Of a DNA stretch of 64,000 nucleotides, positions 10,201-50,734 are shown one piece after another. Under the pieces are notes generated by a model, which worked only from the letters and a program-made list of their open reading frames with translations, searched no databases and was not told where the DNA came from. Origin of the DNA: a bacterium (lineage in GTDB: Bacteria; Electryoneota; Electryoneia; Electryoneales; Electryoneaceae); contig CAXXKJ010000002.1 in NCBI GenBank assembly GCA_963675295.2, positions 2,880,001 to 2,944,000 on the forward strand, in the 5' to 3' direction. Positions within the stretch are counted from its first letter, which is position 1. Each line of letters starts with the position of its first letter. The position numbers and the translations under genes were made by a program.

Positions 10201-10210
10201 GGCTCATCAC

Positions 10211-10292
10211 CTCGTCTCTCGTCTCTTGTCCTTTGTCTCTCCTGAATGGCCAACGGCTATCGCTCAAGACTCAGGACGCAAGACTCAGGACT
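10211..10292. repeat. two 7-bp tandem arrays in the flgN-flgK spacer
   Basis: CTCGTCT CTCGTCT CTTGTCC TTTGTCT (10211-10238); CAAGACT CAGGACG CAAGACT CAGGACT (10265-10292). Confidence 0.85.
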
Positions 10293-10296
10293 TGTT

Positions 10297-14124: not shown

Positions 14125-14916
14125 TTAGCCACGCTTCAGGTTGTTGGCTTCCTGCATCATGCTGTCGGCGGTGCGGATCGCACGGGACGACAGTTCGTAC
14201 GCGCGCTGAGCGACGATCATGTCGACCATTTCCTCAACCACCGCGACATTCGACGACTCGAGGTAACCCTGATTGATCTCGCCGAAACCTTCCTGGCCGG
14301 GATTGGCGAGAATCGGCACGCCGGACGCTTCCGTTTCCTGGAACAGGTTCTGTCCCAACGCACGCAGGCCGGAGGGATTGGTAAACCGTGCCAGCTCGAT
14401 CTGACCGACTTCGGTCGACTCGGTGTCGCCATACAGCGTCGCGAAGACGTAGCCTTCACGGTCGATGGTGACATCAACGGTGTCTTCCGGGATGATGATT
14501 TCCGGGTCCAGCAGGTAGCCGTCACCGTTGACCACGCGTCCGTCCGGACTGACGCTGAAATTGCCGTTGCGGGTGTAGGCGCTGGATCCATCAGGGCGGA
14601 TGATCTGGAAGAATCCCTCGCCTTCGATGGAGAGGTCCAGCTGGTTGCCGGTCTGGGACGGGCTGCCCTGGCTGAAGTTCTTCTCGATTGCGACCGGCTT
14701 GACACCGTGACCGATCTGCAATTCAGCAGGAACCGTGGTCCCTAGTCCACGCACCGAGTGTGTCGCCTGAATCGTCTGGTAGATCAGATCCTGGAATTCG
14801 ACTTTCGATTTCTTGTACCCGGTGGTGTTGACGTTCGCCAGGTTGTTGGAAATCGTGTCGATCTGCAGCTGTTGTGCGTACATGCCACTGGCGGCTGTAC
14901 GCAGGGCGCGCATCAT
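14125..14916 (-). CDS. flgG: distal rod protein FlgG
   Basis: SNNLANVNTTGYKK, FQDLIYQ, YTRNG, LESSNV, AQRAYE. Confidence 0.96.
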   Translation of the reverse strand: MMRALRTAASGMYAQQLQIDTISNNLANVNTTGYKKSKVEFQDLIYQTIQATHSVRGLGTTVPAELQIGHGVKPVAIEKNFSQGSPSQTGNQLDLSIEGEGFFQIIRPDGSSAYTRNGNFSVSPDGRVVNGDGYLLDPEIIIPEDTVDVTIDREGYVFATLYGDTESTEVGQIELARFTNPSGLRALGQNLFQETEASGVPILANPGQEGFGEINQGYLESSNVAVVEEMVDMIVAQRAYELSSRAIRTADSMMQEANNLKRG

Positions 14917-14955: not shown

Positions 14956-15060
14956 CGGTACTTGATACTCAGTATTCAGTAGCCAGTACTCTGTGGTCAG
15001 TGCTCAGTGCTCAGTGGTCCGTTGTCGACTCACCACTCATCACTCAGCGCTCACCACTCT
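14956..15060. repeat. 15 in-phase 7-bp units forming an imperfect inverted repeat in the flgF-flgG spacer
   Basis: Ten CAGTnnT-type units (14956-15025) then five nnACTCA-type units; 105 nt = 15 x 7. Confidence 0.92.
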
Positions 15061-15062
15061 TT

Positions 15063-15800
15063 CTAGAACCTCGGCACCCGGTCGATGAGCCGGCCGAGCG
15101 TGCTATCCTGTGACAGCATCGCGCGTTGCGAGGTGTCGTAGTTGCGGTTCAGGGCGATCATTTCGACCATTTCCTGCACGACGTTGACGTTAGACGCTTC
15201 CACATGTTCCTGATGCACCGTGGTCGTCTCAACTGTATTCAGGTTATCGTCGTTGTCCTTACGGTACAGGTTGTCGCCAACCTTGGTGATCGTATCCGGG
15301 TTGTCGACATCGGCGATCATGAACTTGGTCGTCACCTGTCCGTCCACATGAATCACGCCGGTGTCATCGGTGAAAAAGAGACCATCCGGGATACGTACAG
15401 GGGTCATGCTTTCGTCAAGGACCTTGTACCCGTTGGAGGCGACCAGTTCGCGATTATCGTTGATGTGGAACCGGCCGTCGCGAGTGAGGAACGTCTGGCC
15501 TTCGTCATCCTGCACGACGAAGAAGCCGCGTCCCTTGAGTGCGAAATCGGTCTTGCGTCCGGTCGGATTGATCGCGCCCTGTTCCCAGTCGGTGTAGAGG
15601 CCTTCGTTCAGGCGTTCCACCTGCTTTGCCTGGCCGTCGATGCCGGGCTGGGTCAGCTCGTTGTTCAACGTGAAACTGAAAAAGCGGCGGTCAGCCTTGA
15701 ACGACGTGGTCGACGCGTTCGCGAGGTTGTTCGAGATGTTGGTCAGCTTGTGATAGCGGGGCAACATCCCGGCAGCACTGTGGTAGATCCCTCGAATCAT
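15063..15800 (-). CDS. flgF: proximal rod protein FlgF
   Basis: SNNLANASTTSFK, LTRDGRF, EASNVNVVQEMVEMI; precedes flgG. Confidence 0.88.
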   Translation of the reverse strand: MIRGIYHSAAGMLPRYHKLTNISNNLANASTTSFKADRRFFSFTLNNELTQPGIDGQAKQVERLNEGLYTDWEQGAINPTGRKTDFALKGRGFFVVQDDEGQTFLTRDGRFHINDNRELVASNGYKVLDESMTPVRIPDGLFFTDDTGVIHVDGQVTTKFMIADVDNPDTITKVGDNLYRKDNDDNLNTVETTTVHQEHVEASNVNVVQEMVEMIALNRNYDTSQRAMLSQDSTLGRLIDRVPRF

Positions 15801-21314: not shown

Positions 21315-23516
21315 TCAGGCCGGAGCCGGTTCACGGGCGGGTCTCCGCTTCTTCTGCTGTGCGGGTTTCCGCTCCGGTTCACTGGCTGGATTCCGCGGCG
21401 GCTGCATCGTGATCAGCCCCACCGATTCGACCTGCACGTTGACCAGCAATTCACCGTAAGATAGTACGATAAGTTGTGGTAAAACAGGCTCAGTCAGTTT
21501 CCTGAACGCTTGCCGGATCGTGGGCGACGTGACCACAATCGGCTGCCGTCCACTGTTCGTCATCTGATCCACTTGCTTCGACAGGCTGGCGTAGATCGCG
21601 TTGATTTTCTGCGGCGGCAGGTCAATCACACCGAACTGTCCCTGGCGGCTTGACTGCTGAGCCGCGTCGGACAAGGTCTGTTCCACCTCCGGATCCAACG
21701 TCAGCGAGTACAGTTTGCCGTCGTCATCCACGAACTTCTGCGTGATTGTCGGCGACAACGCATAGCGCACGTATTCCACGAGAATGTCGGTGTCCTTGGT
21801 CATCGGGACGTAGTCGGACAGGGTCTCGAGAATCATGCCGAGGTCGCGGATTGGTATACCCTCACGCAGCAGCCGCTGCAGCACCTTATGCACCGCCCCG
21901 ACGCTCATCAAATTCGGAATCAGCTCTTCGACCACGGTCGGATTGTCCGTCTTCAGGTTCTCGATCAGGGTGTGGACATCTTTGCGTGTCAGCAGCTTGT
22001 ACGCGTTGTTCTTGATCACCTCGACAATGTGCGTCGCGAGCACGGCGGTCGGTTCGACGACAGTGTAGCCGGCATTCTCAGCACGTGCCTTGTTCTTCTG
22101 GTTAACCCACAGTGCGGGCAGACCGTAGGTCGGTTCCTTGGTCGCGGTGCCGTCGATTTTCTCGGTGGCGGTGCCCGGGTTCAACGCGAGGAAATGACCC
22201 ATCCGCAGATCGCCACGGGCGATTTCGTTGCCGCGAATCTTGAGCACGTACTCGTTCGGCTTCAGCTGGATATTATCCCGGATACGAATCGGCGGGATCA
22301 CCAGCCCCATCTGCATCGCCTGCTGCTTGCGGATCTGCGTGATCCGGCTGAGCAAGTCACCTTCCTGGTCTTTATCGACAAGTGGGATCAGGCTGTAGCC
22401 GATTTCCAGCTCCATCGGATCAACGTAGAGGTAATCCTCGATCTTGTCGCTCTCCGTCCTCGGCGTGGTGCCTTCGATAGCTGCAACCTCCATCTCCTGA
22501 TCTTTCTCACGCTTTGATTGCACCGTGCGGTAGGAAATCCAACCGAGGATCGCGGAGAGGATCACGAACGGGATCGTCGGCATGCCCGGAATTATCGAGA
22601 AGAACAGCGCCACACCAGCTGCGATAAATCCGGCGCGCGGATGCATCAGCATCTGCCCGGCGAATTCACGGCCCATCTCCATTTCCGAGGCGGCACGTGA
22701 AACGATCAAACCGGCGGAAACGGAAATAATCAGCGCCGGAATCTGCGAGACAAGACCGTCACCAATGGTCAGGATCGAGTAAGTTTGCAGCGCCTGGCCG
22801 ATTTGCATATCGCGCTGGAAGAAGCCGATCGCGAGACCGCCGAGAATGTTGATCGCGGTGATAATCAGGCCAGCCATGGCGTCCCCGCGGACGAATTTCG
22901 CGGCACCGTCCATCGCGCCGTAAAAGTCGGCTTCGCGGCGGATGTCTTCACGGCGACGATTGGCTTCCTCTTCCTCGATCAGTCCGTTGTTCATGTCGGC
23001 GTCGACCGCCATCTGCTTACCAGGCATGGCGTCCAGGGTAAACCGCGCGGCGACTTCCGCGATACGGCCCGACCCCTTGGTGATGACCATGAAGTTGATC
23101 AGCACGAGAATCAGGAAGATGACAACACCAACGACGAAATTTCCGGCTACAACGAACGAGCCGAACGATTCGATGATCTTCCCGGCGTAGGCTTCGCCGA
23201 GGATCATACGGGTCGTGGCAACGTTCAAACCGAGCCGGAACAGGGTGAGCAACAGCAACAGGGCCGGGAACACGCTGAAGTCCAGTGCGCGGTCCATGTA
23301 CAGCGTAACCATCAGCACCACCAGCGCGGTGGTAATGTTCATCGCAAGGAAAAAGTCGATCAGGGACGACGGGATCGGAATGATCATCAACAGGATCACG
23401 CCGACCGCGGCAACCGCGAGAACAACGTCCGCCCGTTTCGTCAGTTGATCGAGAAACGGCGACTGCTCGAGCTTCTGCTTTGTGCTGAGGTATCCTTTGG
23501 ACTGGGCTTCGGCCAT
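21315..23516 (-). CDS. flhA: export gate protein FlhA
   Basis: AEVAARFTLDAMPGKQMAVDAD, FYGAMDGAAKFVRGDA. Confidence 0.98.
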   Translation of the reverse strand: MAEAQSKGYLSTKQKLEQSPFLDQLTKRADVVLAVAAVGVILLMIIPIPSSLIDFFLAMNITTALVVLMVTLYMDRALDFSVFPALLLLLTLFRLGLNVATTRMILGEAYAGKIIESFGSFVVAGNFVVGVVIFLILVLINFMVITKGSGRIAEVAARFTLDAMPGKQMAVDADMNNGLIEEEEANRRREDIRREADFYGAMDGAAKFVRGDAMAGLIITAINILGGLAIGFFQRDMQIGQALQTYSILTIGDGLVSQIPALIISVSAGLIVSRAASEMEMGREFAGQMLMHPRAGFIAAGVALFFSIIPGMPTIPFVILSAILGWISYRTVQSKREKDQEMEVAAIEGTTPRTESDKIEDYLYVDPMELEIGYSLIPLVDKDQEGDLLSRITQIRKQQAMQMGLVIPPIRIRDNIQLKPNEYVLKIRGNEIARGDLRMGHFLALNPGTATEKIDGTATKEPTYGLPALWVNQKNKARAENAGYTVVEPTAVLATHIVEVIKNNAYKLLTRKDVHTLIENLKTDNPTVVEELIPNLMSVGAVHKVLQRLLREGIPIRDLGMILETLSDYVPMTKDTDILVEYVRYALSPTITQKFVDDDGKLYSLTLDPEVEQTLSDAAQQSSRQGQFGVIDLPPQKINAIYASLSKQVDQMTNSGRQPIVVTSPTIRQAFRKLTEPVLPQLIVLSYGELLVNVQVESVGLITMQPPRNPASEPERKPAQQKKRRPAREPAPA

Positions 23517-23518
23517 GT

Positions 23519-23553
23519 CAGTTATCAGTCGTCTGTCATCAGTGGTCAGTGAA
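23519..23553. repeat. 7-bp tandem array abutting the flhA start codon
   Basis: CAGTTAT CAGTCGT CTGTCAT CAGTGGT CAGTGAA. Confidence 0.85.
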
Positions 23554-38334: not shown

Positions 38335-38353
38335 GAGAAGGTTCTCCTTGTTT

Positions 38354-38452
38354 GGGCAATTTGCCCCGGATACATCTCAGGGATCCTTCGGTTGAGGACG
38401 GTTCCGCATCTGTCGGTTAGCAGAACCAAGGCCTCCTCACAGAGGTCCAGCC
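38354..38452 (-). promoter_or_regulatory. structured 5' leader of flgE (candidate cis-regulatory RNA)
   Basis: mRNA hairpins GGC-UGGA-CCUC-UGU-GAGG-AG-GCC, GGUUCUGC-N12-GCGGAACC and GGGCAAAUUGCCC before the AAGGAG RBS. Confidence 0.55.
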
Positions 38453-38461
38453 TTCCCTGTA

Positions 38462-38672
38462 CTCGTCTCTCGTCTCTAGGCTCTAGTCTCTCGTCCAGTG
38501 TGACGGAGATTGTGAATTGCTTGTTTCGGGTCCGCGTCCCATGTCTTCTGGCTGAGCATGAGCCGCGTTTCCAGACGCTTGTCTTTTGTTCTCTCAAGTC
38601 TCAAGTCTCACATCTCTAGTCTTTTATCTTTCGACTTCAGTTCGACTTTCGACTCTGTACTTCTTTTCGACT
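38462..38672. repeat. two 7-bp tandem arrays between the TIGR02530-type gene and flgE
   Basis: CTCGTCT CTCGTCT CTAGGCT CTAGTCT CTCGTCC (38462-38496); CTCAAGT CTCAAGT CTCACAT CTCTAGT CTTTTAT CTTTCGA, then TCGACT units (38593-38672). Confidence 0.85.
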
Positions 38673-38676
38673 ATTC

Positions 38677-39084
38677 CTAATCGATCAGCACCGCGCTGTC
38701 GATCTGTGTAAAGACATTTTCCCGTGCCTGCTCACCTTGCAGGGCGGTAATCACGGTTCGGTTTTCGACGCTTACGATCAGCGCGAGGTCCCGCATCAGG
38801 AAGAGCGATTCCTTCGCGCCCTTGGCCTGTGCCTGGTCCATCGCACTGCTGATCTTGGTCAAATCCTGCTGGTCGAGGCTGACACCGCGTTGCAGCAGAC
38901 GCTGGCTCGCGTGTGCGCTGATGGTAACGTTCGGCGCGGACGCATTCGCGGGGGCGGAAGCCTTGCGGACAGCATCTTTGAACGAGTCACCGGTGGCAAC
39001 GGTTGACGGTTTGTTGACAGACGTTTGCGGCTGAACCGGACCAACACGTCCCAGGCTCGCCTGGATGCGCGGGTCGAGGTTCAT
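38677..39084 (-). CDS. flagellar operon protein (TIGR02530 type)
   Basis: SAHASQRL..RG, AKGAKESL, VSVENRTVITA, NVFTQIDSAV; between flgD and flgE. Confidence 0.9.
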   Translation of the reverse strand: MNLDPRIQASLGRVGPVQPQTSVNKPSTVATGDSFKDAVRKASAPANASAPNVTISAHASQRLLQRGVSLDQQDLTKISSAMDQAQAKGAKESLFLMRDLALIVSVENRTVITALQGEQARENVFTQIDSAVLID

Positions 39085-42169: not shown

Positions 42170-42849
42170 CAGATCGCACTCTTTTCGTAGGCCTGGGACA
42201 GGTATCGCGCCACTTCGGCGGCTCGTTCACGGGGCATCGCGGCAAGGATTTTCGCCGCCTGCCGTTGCCGCATCGTGATCAGCAATCGTGCGGAGGTTTT
42301 GCTGCCGAGGCCGTTCAATACGGCGGCGGCCTCGACCGGACGCATGTTCTCGATGATCTTGGAAAGGCGCTTGGCGTTGGCCTGATCGACACTGTCAGCG
42401 TCCGCGCTCAGCATCGCCAGCAGGTTCGCGAGATCGTCCACCTTCTCCTCGGCTTCCGCGACCTGTGCCTGGGTCTGCTGGACGTCTTCACGTACCGGAT
42501 CGGTCTTCGCGGTGGCGACGCTGTCCATCATTTCGGTGATGGTTTGCGTGCCGCCTCCGTCAGCTGTCTGGATTTGTCCATCTTCGTCCAGCATCACTGC
42601 GCCGCTGTCACCTTCGGCGGGCAGCATCATTGGACCGCCGCCGGGGCGCGACTGCTGCAGTTGCGAGATGTCCTTCGTCAGGTCGATCGGGGCGCGTCGA
42701 GCAGCTTCTTCGAGTGAATCCGCGATCGCCAGCGAATCGAGCAGGCTGGTGTCGGTTTCTCCCTTCAGCATGAAGTAACTGCCGCCAAGTGTGATCGCAT
42801 ACCCGACAACCAACACAATGATCAGGATCAACAACTGTTTCTTGCTCAT
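42169..42849 (-). CDS. MotE/FlbB/YlxF-like membrane protein (MgtE_N-like helical repeats)
   Basis: N-term TM; LSKIIENMRPVEAAAVL...QAAKILAAMPRERAAEV; between fliJ and fliK. Confidence 0.8.
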   Translation of the reverse strand: MSKKQLLILIIVLVVGYAITLGGSYFMLKGETDTSLLDSLAIADSLEEAARRAPIDLTKDISQLQQSRPGGGPMMLPAEGDSGAVMLDEDGQIQTADGGGTQTITEMMDSVATAKTDPVREDVQQTQAQVAEAEEKVDDLANLLAMLSADADSVDQANAKRLSKIIENMRPVEAAAVLNGLGSKTSARLLITMRQRQAAKILAAMPRERAAEVARYLSQAYEKSAI

Positions 42850-43328
42850 GATCCGTATCCCGCACTAGGGTTCTGGCCGTTGGTTGACTCCGCGCGTGTC
42901 GCGGCACGTCCGCCGATGTCATCCAGTGTGGCCTGTTGTTCTTTCAGGGTGAGCTGCGTGTGTTCCGCGCGTTTCTTCTCTTTCAGCCGGTCGAGGACCT
43001 TGCGTTCACGCGTGGCATCCAGCAGCTCCTGCCGCCGTTGAGCGACCACCTTCTCCGCTTCCCGGCATTTCTCGATCTGAGTCCGCAGCCGTTTTTCCAG
43101 TTCGCGTTGCCAGCGGTGGTGCTGCATGGCGGTTCCGGCGGTAACCGTGCCGCCGAGCATGTTCCGTTGCTGCTTGACAAGTTGCGCGATTTCAGTTTGG
43201 ATCTGATTTTTCACCGTTTCCAGTTCTGTCAACGTCCGCTGCGCCTCACCGAGCTTGCGCTGGGCCTCGCGCTCGACCACCTCACGGGCGTCGAGGACTT
43301 TCTGCAGGCGGAAGTGGAAACGTTTCAT
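42846..43328 (-). CDS. fliJ: export protein FliJ
   Basis: MKRFHFRLQKVLD, ERKVLDRLKEK, EQQATLDD. Confidence 0.93.
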   Translation of the reverse strand: MKRFHFRLQKVLDAREVVEREAQRKLGEAQRTLTELETVKNQIQTEIAQLVKQQRNMLGGTVTAGTAMQHHRWQRELEKRLRTQIEKCREAEKVVAQRRQELLDATRERKVLDRLKEKKRAEHTQLTLKEQQATLDDIGGRAATRAESTNGQNPSAGYGS

Positions 43329-43334
43329 GACGGA

Positions 43335-43842
43335 CTCAGTTCTCAGTGATCAGTGGTCAGTGCTCAGTTAAAACAACCGGAAATCTGTGATCGAGCACTT
43401 CAACCTGCTAACCTCTTTCTTTTACCTTTTGAATCAAACCAAAAATCGTTTTCGCGGTTTCTTCCGATTTAGGTTTAACTTTATCGTATGTAAGATCCGT
43501 CAGATAAGACAATCGTCTGGCCAGCGATAACTGATAATCCAGTTCTCGGACTGAACCGTATGCAATATGCAGAAAGTGTAGAAATTCTTTCGTTGTTGCT
43601 CTGGCACAACCCTCAACAATATTTGATGGTACGGAAACAGCCGCTCGTCGCATTTGATTTGTCAAGCCGAAGCGTTCCTCGTCCGGCATACTCAAGGTGG
43701 CCCGATAAACTTCAAGCGCCAGATCATCTGCAAGGTCAAAAGCTTTTAGATTCCTGTGATCCTGCATTTAGCATTCCTTTCCTGATCACCTGTATTTGCT
43801 TTCACTGACCACTGAGAACTGAGCACTGAAAACTGATAACTG
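43335..43842. mobile_element. candidate cassette: four-helix-bundle gene bracketed by inverted 7-bp repeat arrays
   Basis: Left arm 5 x CAGTKNT-type (43335-43371), right arm 6 x NNMACTG (43801-43842); low-GC gene; interrupts fliI-fliJ. Mobility is inferred. Confidence 0.6.
43408..43767 (-). CDS. four-helix-bundle protein (23S rRNA IVS-protein / bAvd-like family)
   Basis: [38 protein letters not shown] family motifs; hand count about 43% GC. Confidence 0.92.
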
Positions 43843-43849
43843 TCTCGCG

Positions 43850-45205
43850 CTATTGCGCTAGATTGATCACGCTATCCCACGTCCCCTTCAACTCCGACCC
43901 TTCATTCATATCCTGGATCAGGAAATCTTCGATCGCCTGTCGTTTGTGGACAGCGCGGTCGATTCGCGGATTTGAACCTTGCTTATACGCTCCGATGTTG
44001 ATCAGGTCTTCATTTTCACGCCACACGGCCATGTCCGTCTGCACCAGTTTCGCCGCCTTTTTCAACTCATCCGGCACCACTTCGACCATCACACGGCTGA
44101 TACTGTTGAGCACGTCCACCGCCGGATAGTGGCCCTCGGTCGCCAATTTGCGGCTGAGCACGATGTGGCCGTCGAGGATTGAACGGACCGCGTCCGCGAC
44201 AGGCTCATTCATATCATCGCCTTCAACCAGCACGGTGTACAGCGCGGTGATCGAGCCTTTGTCGCCACGTCCGGCGCGTTCGAGCAATTTCGGCAGCATC
44301 GCGAACACGGACGGCGTGTAGCCGCGTGTCGTCGGCGGTTCCCCGACTGCGAGACCGATTTCACGTTGCGCCATCGCGAGACGAGTGACTGAATCCATCA
44401 TCAGCATCACATCTTTGCCCTGGTCACGGAAGTATTCCGCGATCGCGGTGGCAAGCATCGCGCCCTTGATCCGGATCAACGCCGGTTTGTCCGAGGTGAC
44501 AACCACCACGACAGATCGTGCCAACCCTTCCTGCCCGAGGTCGCGTTCGATGAAGTCACGGACCTCGCGTCCACGTTCCCCGACCAGCGCGATCACGTTC
44601 ACCTCGGCTTCGGTGTGGCGTGCGACCATGCCCATGGTGACGCTTTTCCCGACACCGGACCCGGCGAAGATGCCGAATCGCTGGCCTTTGCCGCAGGTCA
44701 ACAATCCGTCTATCGAACGAATGCCCAACGCGAGCGGTTCGGTGACTCGTTGCCGTTTCAGGGGATGCGGTGGATCCGCGGTAATCGGAACCCTGGTTTC
44801 GGTGTCGAGCGGTCCGAGGTCGTCCAACGCATTGCCCAACCCGTCCAGCACCCGTCCGAGCAGCCCCGGCCCGGCTTTGACGGTAAATGGCCGCCGCAGG
44901 GAACGCACGATCGACCCCGGCGCAATACCGCCGAGATCGCCCAACGGCATCAACAGCACGTGATGGTCACGGAACCCGACCACCTCGGCCAACCCCTGAC
45001 GCTGATTCTTTTTATCCAAAAGCTCACAGATTTCACCGACCGACGCTTCCGGCCCGGAGGATTCAATCACCAGCCCGACCACCCGCACAACACGTCCACG
45101 CGGCACGAGCGGCTGCGCGGCGTCCAGCAGCTCTTCATGGCCGCGAAACAGCTCTTCCGGTGCCGGCGGTTGCGCCAACGGTGCGAGGGTCGGTGAATCA
45201 GTCAT
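43850..45205 (-). CDS. fliI: export ATPase FliI
   Basis: FAGSGVGKS, GERGREV, DSVTR, GEPPTTRGY. Confidence 0.97.
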   Translation of the reverse strand: MTDSPTLAPLAQPPAPEELFRGHEELLDAAQPLVPRGRVVRVVGLVIESSGPEASVGEICELLDKKNQRQGLAEVVGFRDHHVLLMPLGDLGGIAPGSIVRSLRRPFTVKAGPGLLGRVLDGLGNALDDLGPLDTETRVPITADPPHPLKRQRVTEPLALGIRSIDGLLTCGKGQRFGIFAGSGVGKSVTMGMVARHTEAEVNVIALVGERGREVRDFIERDLGQEGLARSVVVVVTSDKPALIRIKGAMLATAIAEYFRDQGKDVMLMMDSVTRLAMAQREIGLAVGEPPTTRGYTPSVFAMLPKLLERAGRGDKGSITALYTVLVEGDDMNEPVADAVRSILDGHIVLSRKLATEGHYPAVDVLNSISRVMVEVVPDELKKAAKLVQTDMAVWRENEDLINIGAYKQGSNPRIDRAVHKRQAIEDFLIQDMNEGSELKGTWDSVINLAQ

Positions 45206-50672: not shown

Positions 50673-50734
50673 GTCCTGAGTCCTGAGTCTTGAGTCCTGA
50701 GACTGAAAAACCTGGGATGTGAGATGTGAGACGG
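50673..50734. repeat. 7-bp tandem arrays upstream of the flgB promoter
   Basis: GTCCTGA GTCCTGA GTCTTGA GTCCTGA (50673-50700); GGGATGT GAGATGT GAGACGG (50714-50734). Confidence 0.85.

Follow-up and report, generated by a model that had tools for sequence, protein, structure and literature searches.

A four-helix-bundle gene between inverted heptamer arrays as a putative intervening-sequence-type hairpin cassette at a fliI-fliJ junction

The window, a stretch of 64,000 nucleotides (G000:C2:2880001-2944000, in which G000 is the label of the source genome), contains a pair of flagellar genes, fliI and fliJ, that are separated by a small open reading frame (ORF). The gene order on the minus strand is fliI, the ORF of 119 amino acids and fliJ, and all three are co-oriented. 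The features of the locus are listed below in the order of the operon sense.

43850-45205, minus strand: fliI, gene for the flagellar export ATPase, the upstream host gene (PF00006, PF18269, PF02874).
43329-43852, minus strand: whole insert of 524 nt, from the last fliI sense codon to the fliJ ATG, as judged by comparison with the cassette-free genomes G002 and G003.
43803-43842, minus strand: 5' arm in the operon sense, six heptamers (Tandem Repeats Finder (TRF), period 7; inverted repeat; paired in the MFE and centroid folds).
43786-43799, minus strand: inner inverted segment, 5' side (from the sequence; partly paired in the MFE fold).
43408-43767, minus strand: four-helix-bundle gene of 119 aa, 23S-rRNA-intervening-sequence protein family (PF05635, TIGR02436).
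43380-43392, minus strand: inner inverted segment, 3' side, an imperfect stem extension (from the sequence; partly paired in the MFE fold).
43335-43372, minus strand: 3' arm in the operon sense, ACTGAGC ACTGACC ACTGATC ACTGAGA ACTGAG (TRF, period 7; paired in the fold).
42846-43328, minus strand: fliJ, the downstream host gene (PF02050, E 4.7e-14).

The 119-aa protein matched PF05635 with an E-value of 1.3e-34 (119.1 bits; cut-off 33.8) and TIGR02436 with an E-value of 3.5e-34 (117.3 bits; cut-off 24). Its closest solved relative was Xanthomonas XCC0516 (PDB 2gsc, E 5.8e-22); the entries matched by sequence, 2gsc and 2rld, contain five chains each, and an X. campestris member of the family is described as a homopentameric toroid in PMC4990558. 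The protein also resembled Avd of diversity-generating retroelements (DGRs), with which it shares the four-helix-bundle fold family. Weak matches to bAvd (PF22296) were found consistently in 7 of 7 aligned family proteins (best E 4e-8); for the 119-aa protein, however, the scores fell far below the cut-offs, with 17.6 bits against 40 for bAvd and 21.1 bits against 80 (E 2.8e-4) for the Avd model NF033474. Overall, the profile matches support a placement in the family of ORF-bearing 23S rRNA intervening sequences (IVSs) with a distant, Avd-like relationship. PADLOC defence-system models matched none of the seven family proteins. The family itself is very large and of unknown function; at least 2717 PF05635/TIGR02436 proteins with E ≤ 1e-20 were present among the 8000 candidates scored in one search.

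In contrast to a DGR, the locus had no adjacent reverse transcriptase and no template/variable repeat. A link to reverse transcription was rejected for the genome as a whole, as its single match was retron-like and far from all six copies of the family, about 590 kb away. This sole match in G000 (RVT_1, C2:3515028-3515576, within C2:3513528-3517076) belongs to a 319-aa protein that adjoins a 295-aa low-GC protein with no Pfam match, and the pair looks like a retron-type defence module.

The two arms of the locus were composed of heptamers throughout. The plus strand reads CAGTTCT CAGTGAT CAGTGGT CAGTGCT CAGTTAA at 43337-43371, and the reverse complement of 43803-43842 reads CAGTTAT CAGTTTT CAGTGCT CAGTTCT CAGTGGT CAGTGAA. 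The 5' arm starts 7 nt past the fliI stop codon and the 3' arm ends 6 nt ahead of the fliJ ATG. TRF reported period 7 at 43335-43368 (4.9 copies, 85% matches) and at 43803-43842, and both arms are tandem arrays of 7-nt units in intergenic DNA that resemble short tandemly repeated repetitive (STRR) sequences. A repeat search paired 43336-43376 with 43796-43836 over 41 nt with 83% complementarity, and the best core of 21 nt reached 95%. The similarity continued inwards, where 43381-43392 (AAATCTGTGATC) resembles the reverse complement of 43786-43799 (AAATACAGGTGATC). For the array pair, the ungapped stem scored 22.5, which is more than expected by chance given a maximum of 15 among 145 shifted controls drawn from homologous loci. 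In four contig-only runs, the stretch was in one piece, and its arms were matched by other loci as well.

Upon folding of the sense strand of 43325-43852, we obtained a predicted structure of -161.3 kcal/mol (z -3.09), and 0 of 100 shuffled sequences folded as well. The arms were paired and the ORF was looped out in both the MFE and the centroid structures. The locus thus has complementary termini that would form a stable stem around the element, as IVSs do (41 nt, 83%; z -3.09). The predicted stem begins 4-16 nt downstream of the fliI UAG and is followed within 0-6 nt by the fliJ AUG; with both codons at the stem base, the ancestral stop/start neighbourhood would be restored in space. No known RNA family was found in 42800-44300 with Rfam, and a consensus scan of 43200-44000 revealed no promoter-like or terminator-like site.

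The original prediction had named much of this from the letters of the DNA. It had described a gene of about 43% GC that splits fliI-fliJ, and the gene at 43408-43767 on the minus strand has a GC content of 43-44%, compared with 0.60-0.62 for fliJ, fliI and the remaining locus (0.43-0.44 for the gene on the same scale). Its assignment to the intervening-sequence protein family with a relation to Avd agrees with the PF05635/TIGR02436 matches and the weak bAvd/Avd matches. The inverted heptamers that it had listed were recovered letter for letter, the further inner similarity was present and partly paired in the MFE fold, and its proposal that the arms could pair in the mRNA and loop out the ORF is borne out by the predicted fold.

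To place the locus in an evolutionary frame, we searched FliI in 41 genomes (G000 and 40 relatives). FliI was found in 34 of them; 30 loci were compared, and 29 had a fliJ match. A four-helix-bundle gene was present between fliI and fliJ in 2 of the 29, namely G000 and its nearest relative G001, whose FliI and FliJ are 94% and 88% identical to those of G000. The two genes were at most about 94 nt apart in 26 loci, which comprised G002 and G003 of the same genus and 24 further loci. In G002 and G003, the fliI stop codon overlaps the fliJ start codon (ATGA) and arrays are absent from the junction. Because cassette-free junctions exist in these congeners, the segment between fliI and fliJ is an inserted cassette, and since the FliI C-terminus has an equal length in all four congeners (G000-G003), the ATGA overlap places the insert at 43329-43852. 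The TAG that now ends fliI is part of the insert, while the old ATGA remains at fliJ. The best explanation of these sequences is an insertion on the branch leading to G000 and G001, exactly at the overlap of the fliI stop and fliJ start codons. The cassette is accordingly not fixed at this site. Neither a direct repeat or target-site duplication nor a transposase was detected when filled and empty fliI-fliJ junctions were compared, in agreement with what had been noted from G000 by itself; compared with a DNA transposon or MITE, which combines terminal inverted repeats with a target-site duplication, the element had the inverted arms and lacked the duplication.

The cassettes of G000 and G001 were related but clearly different. 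The G001 protein was 73% identical to that of G000, and its heptamers were TCGGTAG/ACCGACA, in place of CAGTGNT/ACTGAGN in G000. A recent horizontal swap from a distant donor was considered and rejected, since the nearest protein was the G001 copy at 73%. Among the matches listed from a collection of 5.8 billion sequences, those after the G001 copy reached at most 64% identity over at least 91% of the query, and two partial matches (P0062 and P0086) reached 71-72% over 76% of the query.

The same junction was also unusual in G028, a distant relative. Its fliI-fliJ gap of 667 nt (G028:C44 602-1269) contained inverted CAAGTTN/AACTTGN arrays, an AGGGTAA array and several REP-like palindromes, and the family HMM detected neither a four-helix-bundle gene nor a remnant of one in this gap. 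The array-filled gap suggests that the same junction was hit independently.

Six PF05635 genes were present in G000, and all six were bracketed by inverted period-7 arrays. The units differed among the copies: CAGTNNT, A-rich AAAGA-type, GGTGTGA (twice), GTCTATG and GGGCTCA. At least five of the six copies lay between co-oriented host genes. The 5' arm started at most 9 nt from the upstream stop codon or contained it in all six, and in four the distance from the 3' arm to the next start codon was about 15 nt or less. The PF05635 copies of G001-G003 likewise had inverted heptamer arms.

We then compared 80 homologous loci from across phyla, of which 76 were analysable, with 145 placements shifted by 1.1 kb as controls. 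A flank stem score of at least 14 was observed in 54 of the 76 loci and in 1 of the 145 controls, so that the inverted period-7 flanks anticipated for other family members were found well beyond the six copies of G000. Of the 76 loci, 24 had period 7 on both flanks, as did none of the 145 controls; by the same criterion, periods 5, 6 and 9 were found in no locus and period 8 in one. In a unit-level analysis, 48 of 99 loci showed clear period 7 on both sides, and in 44 of these 48 the upstream unit and the reverse-complemented downstream unit had no more than one mismatch, compared with 5% of between-locus pairs. As the units vary between loci while the arms within a locus agree, this amounts to covariation on a large scale. 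The gene with its repeats appears to be a widespread and largely undescribed kind of come-and-go cassette. In the literature searched, which took in few subscription journals, we found no description of PF05635 genes bracketed by inverted heptamer arrays outside rRNA.

These controls bear on the simplest reading, in which heptamer arrays fill the intergenic DNA and an ordinary small gene happens to lie between two of them. Arrays are certainly abundant, as G000 has 666 period-7 arrays, 522 of them intergenic, and a few ordinary genes are also situated between inverted arrays (e.g., C2:1093335-1094338 and C2:2375397-2376547). Coincidence is nevertheless contradicted by both the shifted-placement and the unit-level controls: 6 of 6 PF05635 copies are bracketed, 5 of 6 inverted pairs at 400-600 nt hold a PF05635 gene, the bracketing recurs in other phyla (54/76 versus 1/145), including lineages whose sampled genomes are array-poor, and the cassette-free fliI-fliJ junction occurs in congeners that have no arrays there. 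We consider this reading extremely improbable.

One locus in the comparison differed in layout. In G008 (C1:897600-900914), a four-helix-bundle gene was flanked by direct repeats of about 80 nt that included T-rich heptamers, and not by inverted arms; it sits 2.3 kb from a copy with normal inverted arms.

The cassettes also showed consistent orientation. Neighbours were assigned by a crude longest-open-frame call, which left 29 (upstream) and 31 (downstream) of the 80 loci uncalled; the family gene had the same direction as its upstream neighbour in 47 of the 51 loci that could be called, as its downstream neighbour in 41 of 49 and as both in 27 of 33. Together with the lack of a promoter-like site, this co-orientation fits a gene that lives on read-through transcription from the host genes. 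Additionally, the G-rich arm came first in 48 of the 52 loci with a G/C difference. Because the polarity of an inverted repeat reads alike on both strands, a G-rich arm in first position is a property of the hairpin and not of gene orientation. A conceivable explanation is that Rho might be attracted to a C-rich, G-poor arm that had no pairing partner while transcription was under way.

Within the genus of G000, empty and filled states of a site can be compared, as can sister cassettes whose arms differ, and one site is occupied throughout the four species; together these form a natural series. The PF05635 copy number was 7 in G001, 2 in G002 and 4-5 in G003, and besides fliI-fliJ, three sites were common to several congeners. 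At the junction of a uvrC-like end with purD, all four species carried a cassette, with TGAGGTG in both arms in G000 and G001, TGAGTTG in G002 and TGAGCTG in G003. At the junction before xthA, three species had GGGCTCN arms and G002 had CGTCTCT. In G003, the gene before xthA (G003:C11:9048-9308) was split between two frames while its GGCTCGG/GAGCCCA arms persisted, which suggests a decaying copy.

Third-codon-position identity between G000 and G001 was 0.38-0.39 for the fliI-fliJ cassette gene, 0.68 for fliI and 0.78 for fliJ. At two other shared sites it was 0.56 and 0.53 for the cassette genes against 0.71-0.78 for the flanks, and at the ribF/rpsO site the cassette gene (0.82) was comparable to its flanks (0.79 and 0.96). 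Judged from these alignments, the cassettes evolve faster than their flanks at three of the four shared sites. Among 81 ungapped orthologue pairs from a 134-kb sample of G001, the identity ranged from 0.55 to 0.90 with a median of 0.73, and the fliI-fliJ cassette is therefore far outside the ordinary orthologue range. The ORF appeared to be under purifying selection between the G000 and G001 copies (dN 0.19, with synonymous sites saturated). Two readings remain: the sister cassettes may have diverged unusually fast in place with the protein under purifying selection, or related alleles from an unsampled pool may have displaced each other. In each of the 17 cassettes examined within the genus, the gene had a lower GC content than the rest of its locus (0.37-0.52 versus 0.50-0.62), by 7-20 points. 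As this holds even at the site that is filled in all four species, the low GC is maintained and is not merely a mark of recent arrival. Low GC and fast divergence could stem from biased mutation in the hairpin loop, from relaxed codon usage or from replacement of alleles.

Taken as a whole, we consider it reasonably likely that the segment 43329-43852 represents a hairpin cassette of the intervening-sequence type that resides in operon transcripts. Direct support comes from the insertion polymorphism, the complementary turnover of the arms, the family-wide association, the co-orientation, the absence of a promoter- or terminator-like site of its own in the consensus scan and the faster evolution; from these we infer pairing in vivo, processing by RNase III, a role for the protein and movement of the cassette. 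In this account, a promoterless PF05635 gene would occupy the loop of a stem of roughly 40 bp made of two inverted heptamer arrays, and would be read as part of the flagellar operon transcript. Pairing of the arms would bring the fliI stop and fliJ start codons side by side at the stem base, and by this juxtaposition the insert would be tolerated in the same manner as the rRNA intervening sequences that carry the PF05635 family. The stem would probably be cut by RNase III, whose gene (rnc) is encoded in G000, or would otherwise bridge both host cistrons. If the stem stayed paired, it would also cover a weak GAG just upstream of the fliJ ATG. Of the original idea of an mRNA cassette resembling an intervening sequence, the inserted cassette is thus well founded, with an empty site, sister cassettes and family-wide controls, while the RNA-level mechanism is the best-supported account of it.

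The comparison with known rRNA elements is close in several respects. The IVS in helix 45 of Coxiella burnetii 23S rRNA contains an S23p ORF and a 28-bp terminal stem that RNase III cuts in the middle, and tandem heptameric repeats near its 5' end vary in copy number between strains (PMC4990558). ORF-bearing 23S IVSs also occur in Leptospira, in Brucella and as the Xanthomonas-type S23p (PMC4990558). The element studied here and the 23S rRNA IVSs share a PF05635 protein in the loop, a long terminal inverted-repeat stem, a location within a host transcript and a size of about 430-520 nt. In contrast to these IVSs, which reside in helix 25 or 45 of 23S rRNA, the present element is situated at an operon junction between fliI and fliJ, and both of its arms consist wholly of heptamer arrays. 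The ORFs differ as well, as that of Coxiella is described as decaying, whereas the fliI-fliJ ORF is intact and apparently under purifying selection. Within the same literature scope, PMC4990558 was the sole paper that joined heptameric repeats with an intervening sequence.

We examined whether the arm mismatches carried the wobble signature of a stem selected as RNA. There were 43 mismatches of G.U type on the sense strand, 48 of G.U type on the antisense strand and 94 transversions, and hence no asymmetry (43 versus 48), although the test is a weak one, given that variable units have no fixed register relative to each other. Nothing in the complementarity thus marks it as specific to RNA, and DNA-level processes, namely slippage inside each arm and template switching from one arm to the other, could also maintain it.

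This result fits a DNA-level foldback or MITE-like mobile element, in which the heptamer arrays would be terminal repeats or single-stranded hairpins for a trans-acting enzyme, template switching during replication would keep the arms complementary and any RNA stem would arise incidentally. Such an element would also suit a cassette that is present or absent at an exact junction, and a pattern in which both arms shift in concert yet each arm remains homogeneous, as slippage and palindrome correction would produce. Y1 transposases are enzymes that act on DNA hairpins, and G000 contains an IS200-like Y1 transposase in 8 equal-scoring copies (11 Y1_Tnp matches in total). However, Y1 matches were found in 36 of 41 relatives and were unrelated to arrays or cassettes, no target duplication and no cassette-linked enzyme were detected, and the co-orientation with host genes (47/51) points to a constraint at the transcript level. 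We therefore regard the foldback reading as unlikely, and the specific candidate of a Y1 transposase driving the arrays was rejected, as positivity in 36 of 41 relatives bore no relation to array density. One Y1 transposase (PF01797, E 4e-36) in G000 lies beside a superoxide dismutase gene between heptamer arrays (C2:1839300-1841100).

REP/BIME elements and MITEs are small, non-autonomous, hairpin-forming intergenic elements, found preferentially at the 3' ends of genes and seldom in promoter gaps. The sequences described here share this small size, lack of autonomy, hairpin formation and intergenic location, and the arrays have a similar distribution over gaps; the cassettes differ in having locus-specific heptamer arms in place of a conserved palindrome or terminal repeat, a conserved gene aboard and no target duplication.

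Arrays of heptanucleotides have long been known in the intergenic DNA of bacteria without an explanation. Mazel et al. reportedly described such STRR heptanucleotide repeats in filamentous cyanobacteria in 1990. STRRs are intergenic tandem arrays with a 7-nt period that fall into many sequence families and have an unknown origin, and they have been used for fingerprinting. The arrays of G000 share these properties but include inverted pairs around a PF05635 gene, which the literature searched does not describe for STRRs, and the organism here is flagellated. In G000, 666 merged arrays with periods of 7, 14, 21 or 28 were identified; TRF returned 630 rows at period 7 and 107 at period 8. The 522 intergenic arrays contrast with an intergenic share of 15% of the genome. 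Placement relied on a home-made gene caller that miscalls fliJ and skips AT-rich cassette genes; by this map, 302 arrays lay in co-oriented gaps, 186 in convergent gaps and 34 in divergent gaps, while about 317, 99 and 107, respectively, were expected from gap length, which indicates a preference for gene ends and an avoidance of promoter gaps. Most of the G000 arrays belong to about 20 unit families, and 592 period-7 units shared a weak pattern of roughly W-S-A-G-H-Y-S (4.83 bits, compared with 3.3-3.6 for letter-shuffled units). The unit families of the cassette arms are common among lone arrays, so the arms and the lone arrays are the same kind of sequence.

Among the 666 arrays, we found 20 inverted pairs with a stem score of at least 14. 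Six of them were spaced 400-600 nt apart, and five of these six held a PF05635 gene; the sixth cassette of G000 has A-rich arms that TRF missed. Searching the 15 gene-less inverted pairs with the family HMM revealed no remnant, as the only matches with E < 0.1 were the five known genes. Little therefore speaks for the suggestion that arrays without the gene serve as empty or target sites.

Array density was estimated from samples of 117-200 kb per genome. Per 200 kb, there were 18-34 arrays in G000 (6 gene copies), 33 in G001 (7), 7.9 in G002 (2), 9 in G008 (3), 8 in G027 (15) and 5 in G030 (5); the genomes with no gene copy had 3.4 (G004), 5 (G011), 5 (G025) and 16 (G034). G000 and G001 stand out for their richness in arrays, and no relation between array density and PF05635 copy number was observed in the sampled genomes.

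These data weigh on a protein-guided system, in which a ring-forming protein would attach to the heptamer arms of its own cassette, either to regulate itself or to propagate, and would be the source or the reader of the gene-less arrays. Its appeal lies in the homology to Avd, a pentamer that binds nucleic acid and reverse transcriptase, through the weak bAvd matches of all seven proteins, in the five chains of 2gsc and 2rld and the X. campestris toroid (PMC4990558), in the persistence of period 7 across phyla irrespective of the heptamer sequence and in the heptamer families that cassette arms share with lone arrays. Protein identity and heptamer similarity were weakly correlated (rho -0.16, permutation p 0.002). 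Even so, the mean unit distance was 3.18 for proteins with 55-65% identity and about 3.5 for distant pairs, which is close to random; density does not track copy number (e.g., 15 copies with 8 arrays in G027 and no copy with 16 in G034), and only 20 inverted pairs emerged from the array pairs tested among 666 arrays. The system as described is, in our assessment, quite improbable. The earlier claim that the protein spreads heptamer arrays is likewise unsupported, given that density varies regardless of copy number and that inverted pairs account for a minority of the arrays.

For the intervening-sequence-type cassette that we favour, the wider meaning lies in the gene and its arrays being one unit that appears to be gained at exact operon junctions and to outpace its surroundings while its arms stay complementary. 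This unit links the ORF-bearing rRNA intervening sequences with both the PF05635 family and the heptamer arrays. A bolder extension, to which we give little credence, would be an autonomous class of elements residing in rRNA helices and at operon stop/start junctions, with a stem that hides the insert and joins the upstream stop to the downstream start, a ring protein that binds the stem with its 7-nt period and makes it more uniform and more widespread, and solo arrays that are left behind. If this were true, the stem would make the insert topologically invisible, so that translational coupling or RNase III maturation would continue as if the insert were absent, and the leftover solo arrays would explain the long-unexplained heptamer repeats of bacterial genomes.

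Several further arrays were observed within the window. A gene-less heptamer hairpin at 14966-15059 fills a 146-nt gap between the co-oriented flagellar-region ORFs 14125-14916 and 15063-15800 (both on the minus strand). In the sense direction it consists of a GAGTGNT array, 7 nt and an ACTGAGC/ACCACTG array, the second of which is almost identical to the 3' arm of the fliI-fliJ cassette. Period-7 arrays were also present in short operon gaps at 10211-10292, 23517-23550, 38462-38622 and 50673-50731. In particular, the 96-nt gap 10201-10296 is filled by two different purine-rich arrays in tandem, an ACTGAYN array adjoins the ATG at 23516, and the gap 38335-39080 contains three arrays. Elsewhere in G000, families of REP-like palindromes recur beside heptamer arrays, including C2 near 973200, 1093400 and 3927090; examples are CCACGGAC-N4-GTCCGTGG and GGGGACAC-N-GTGTCCCC.
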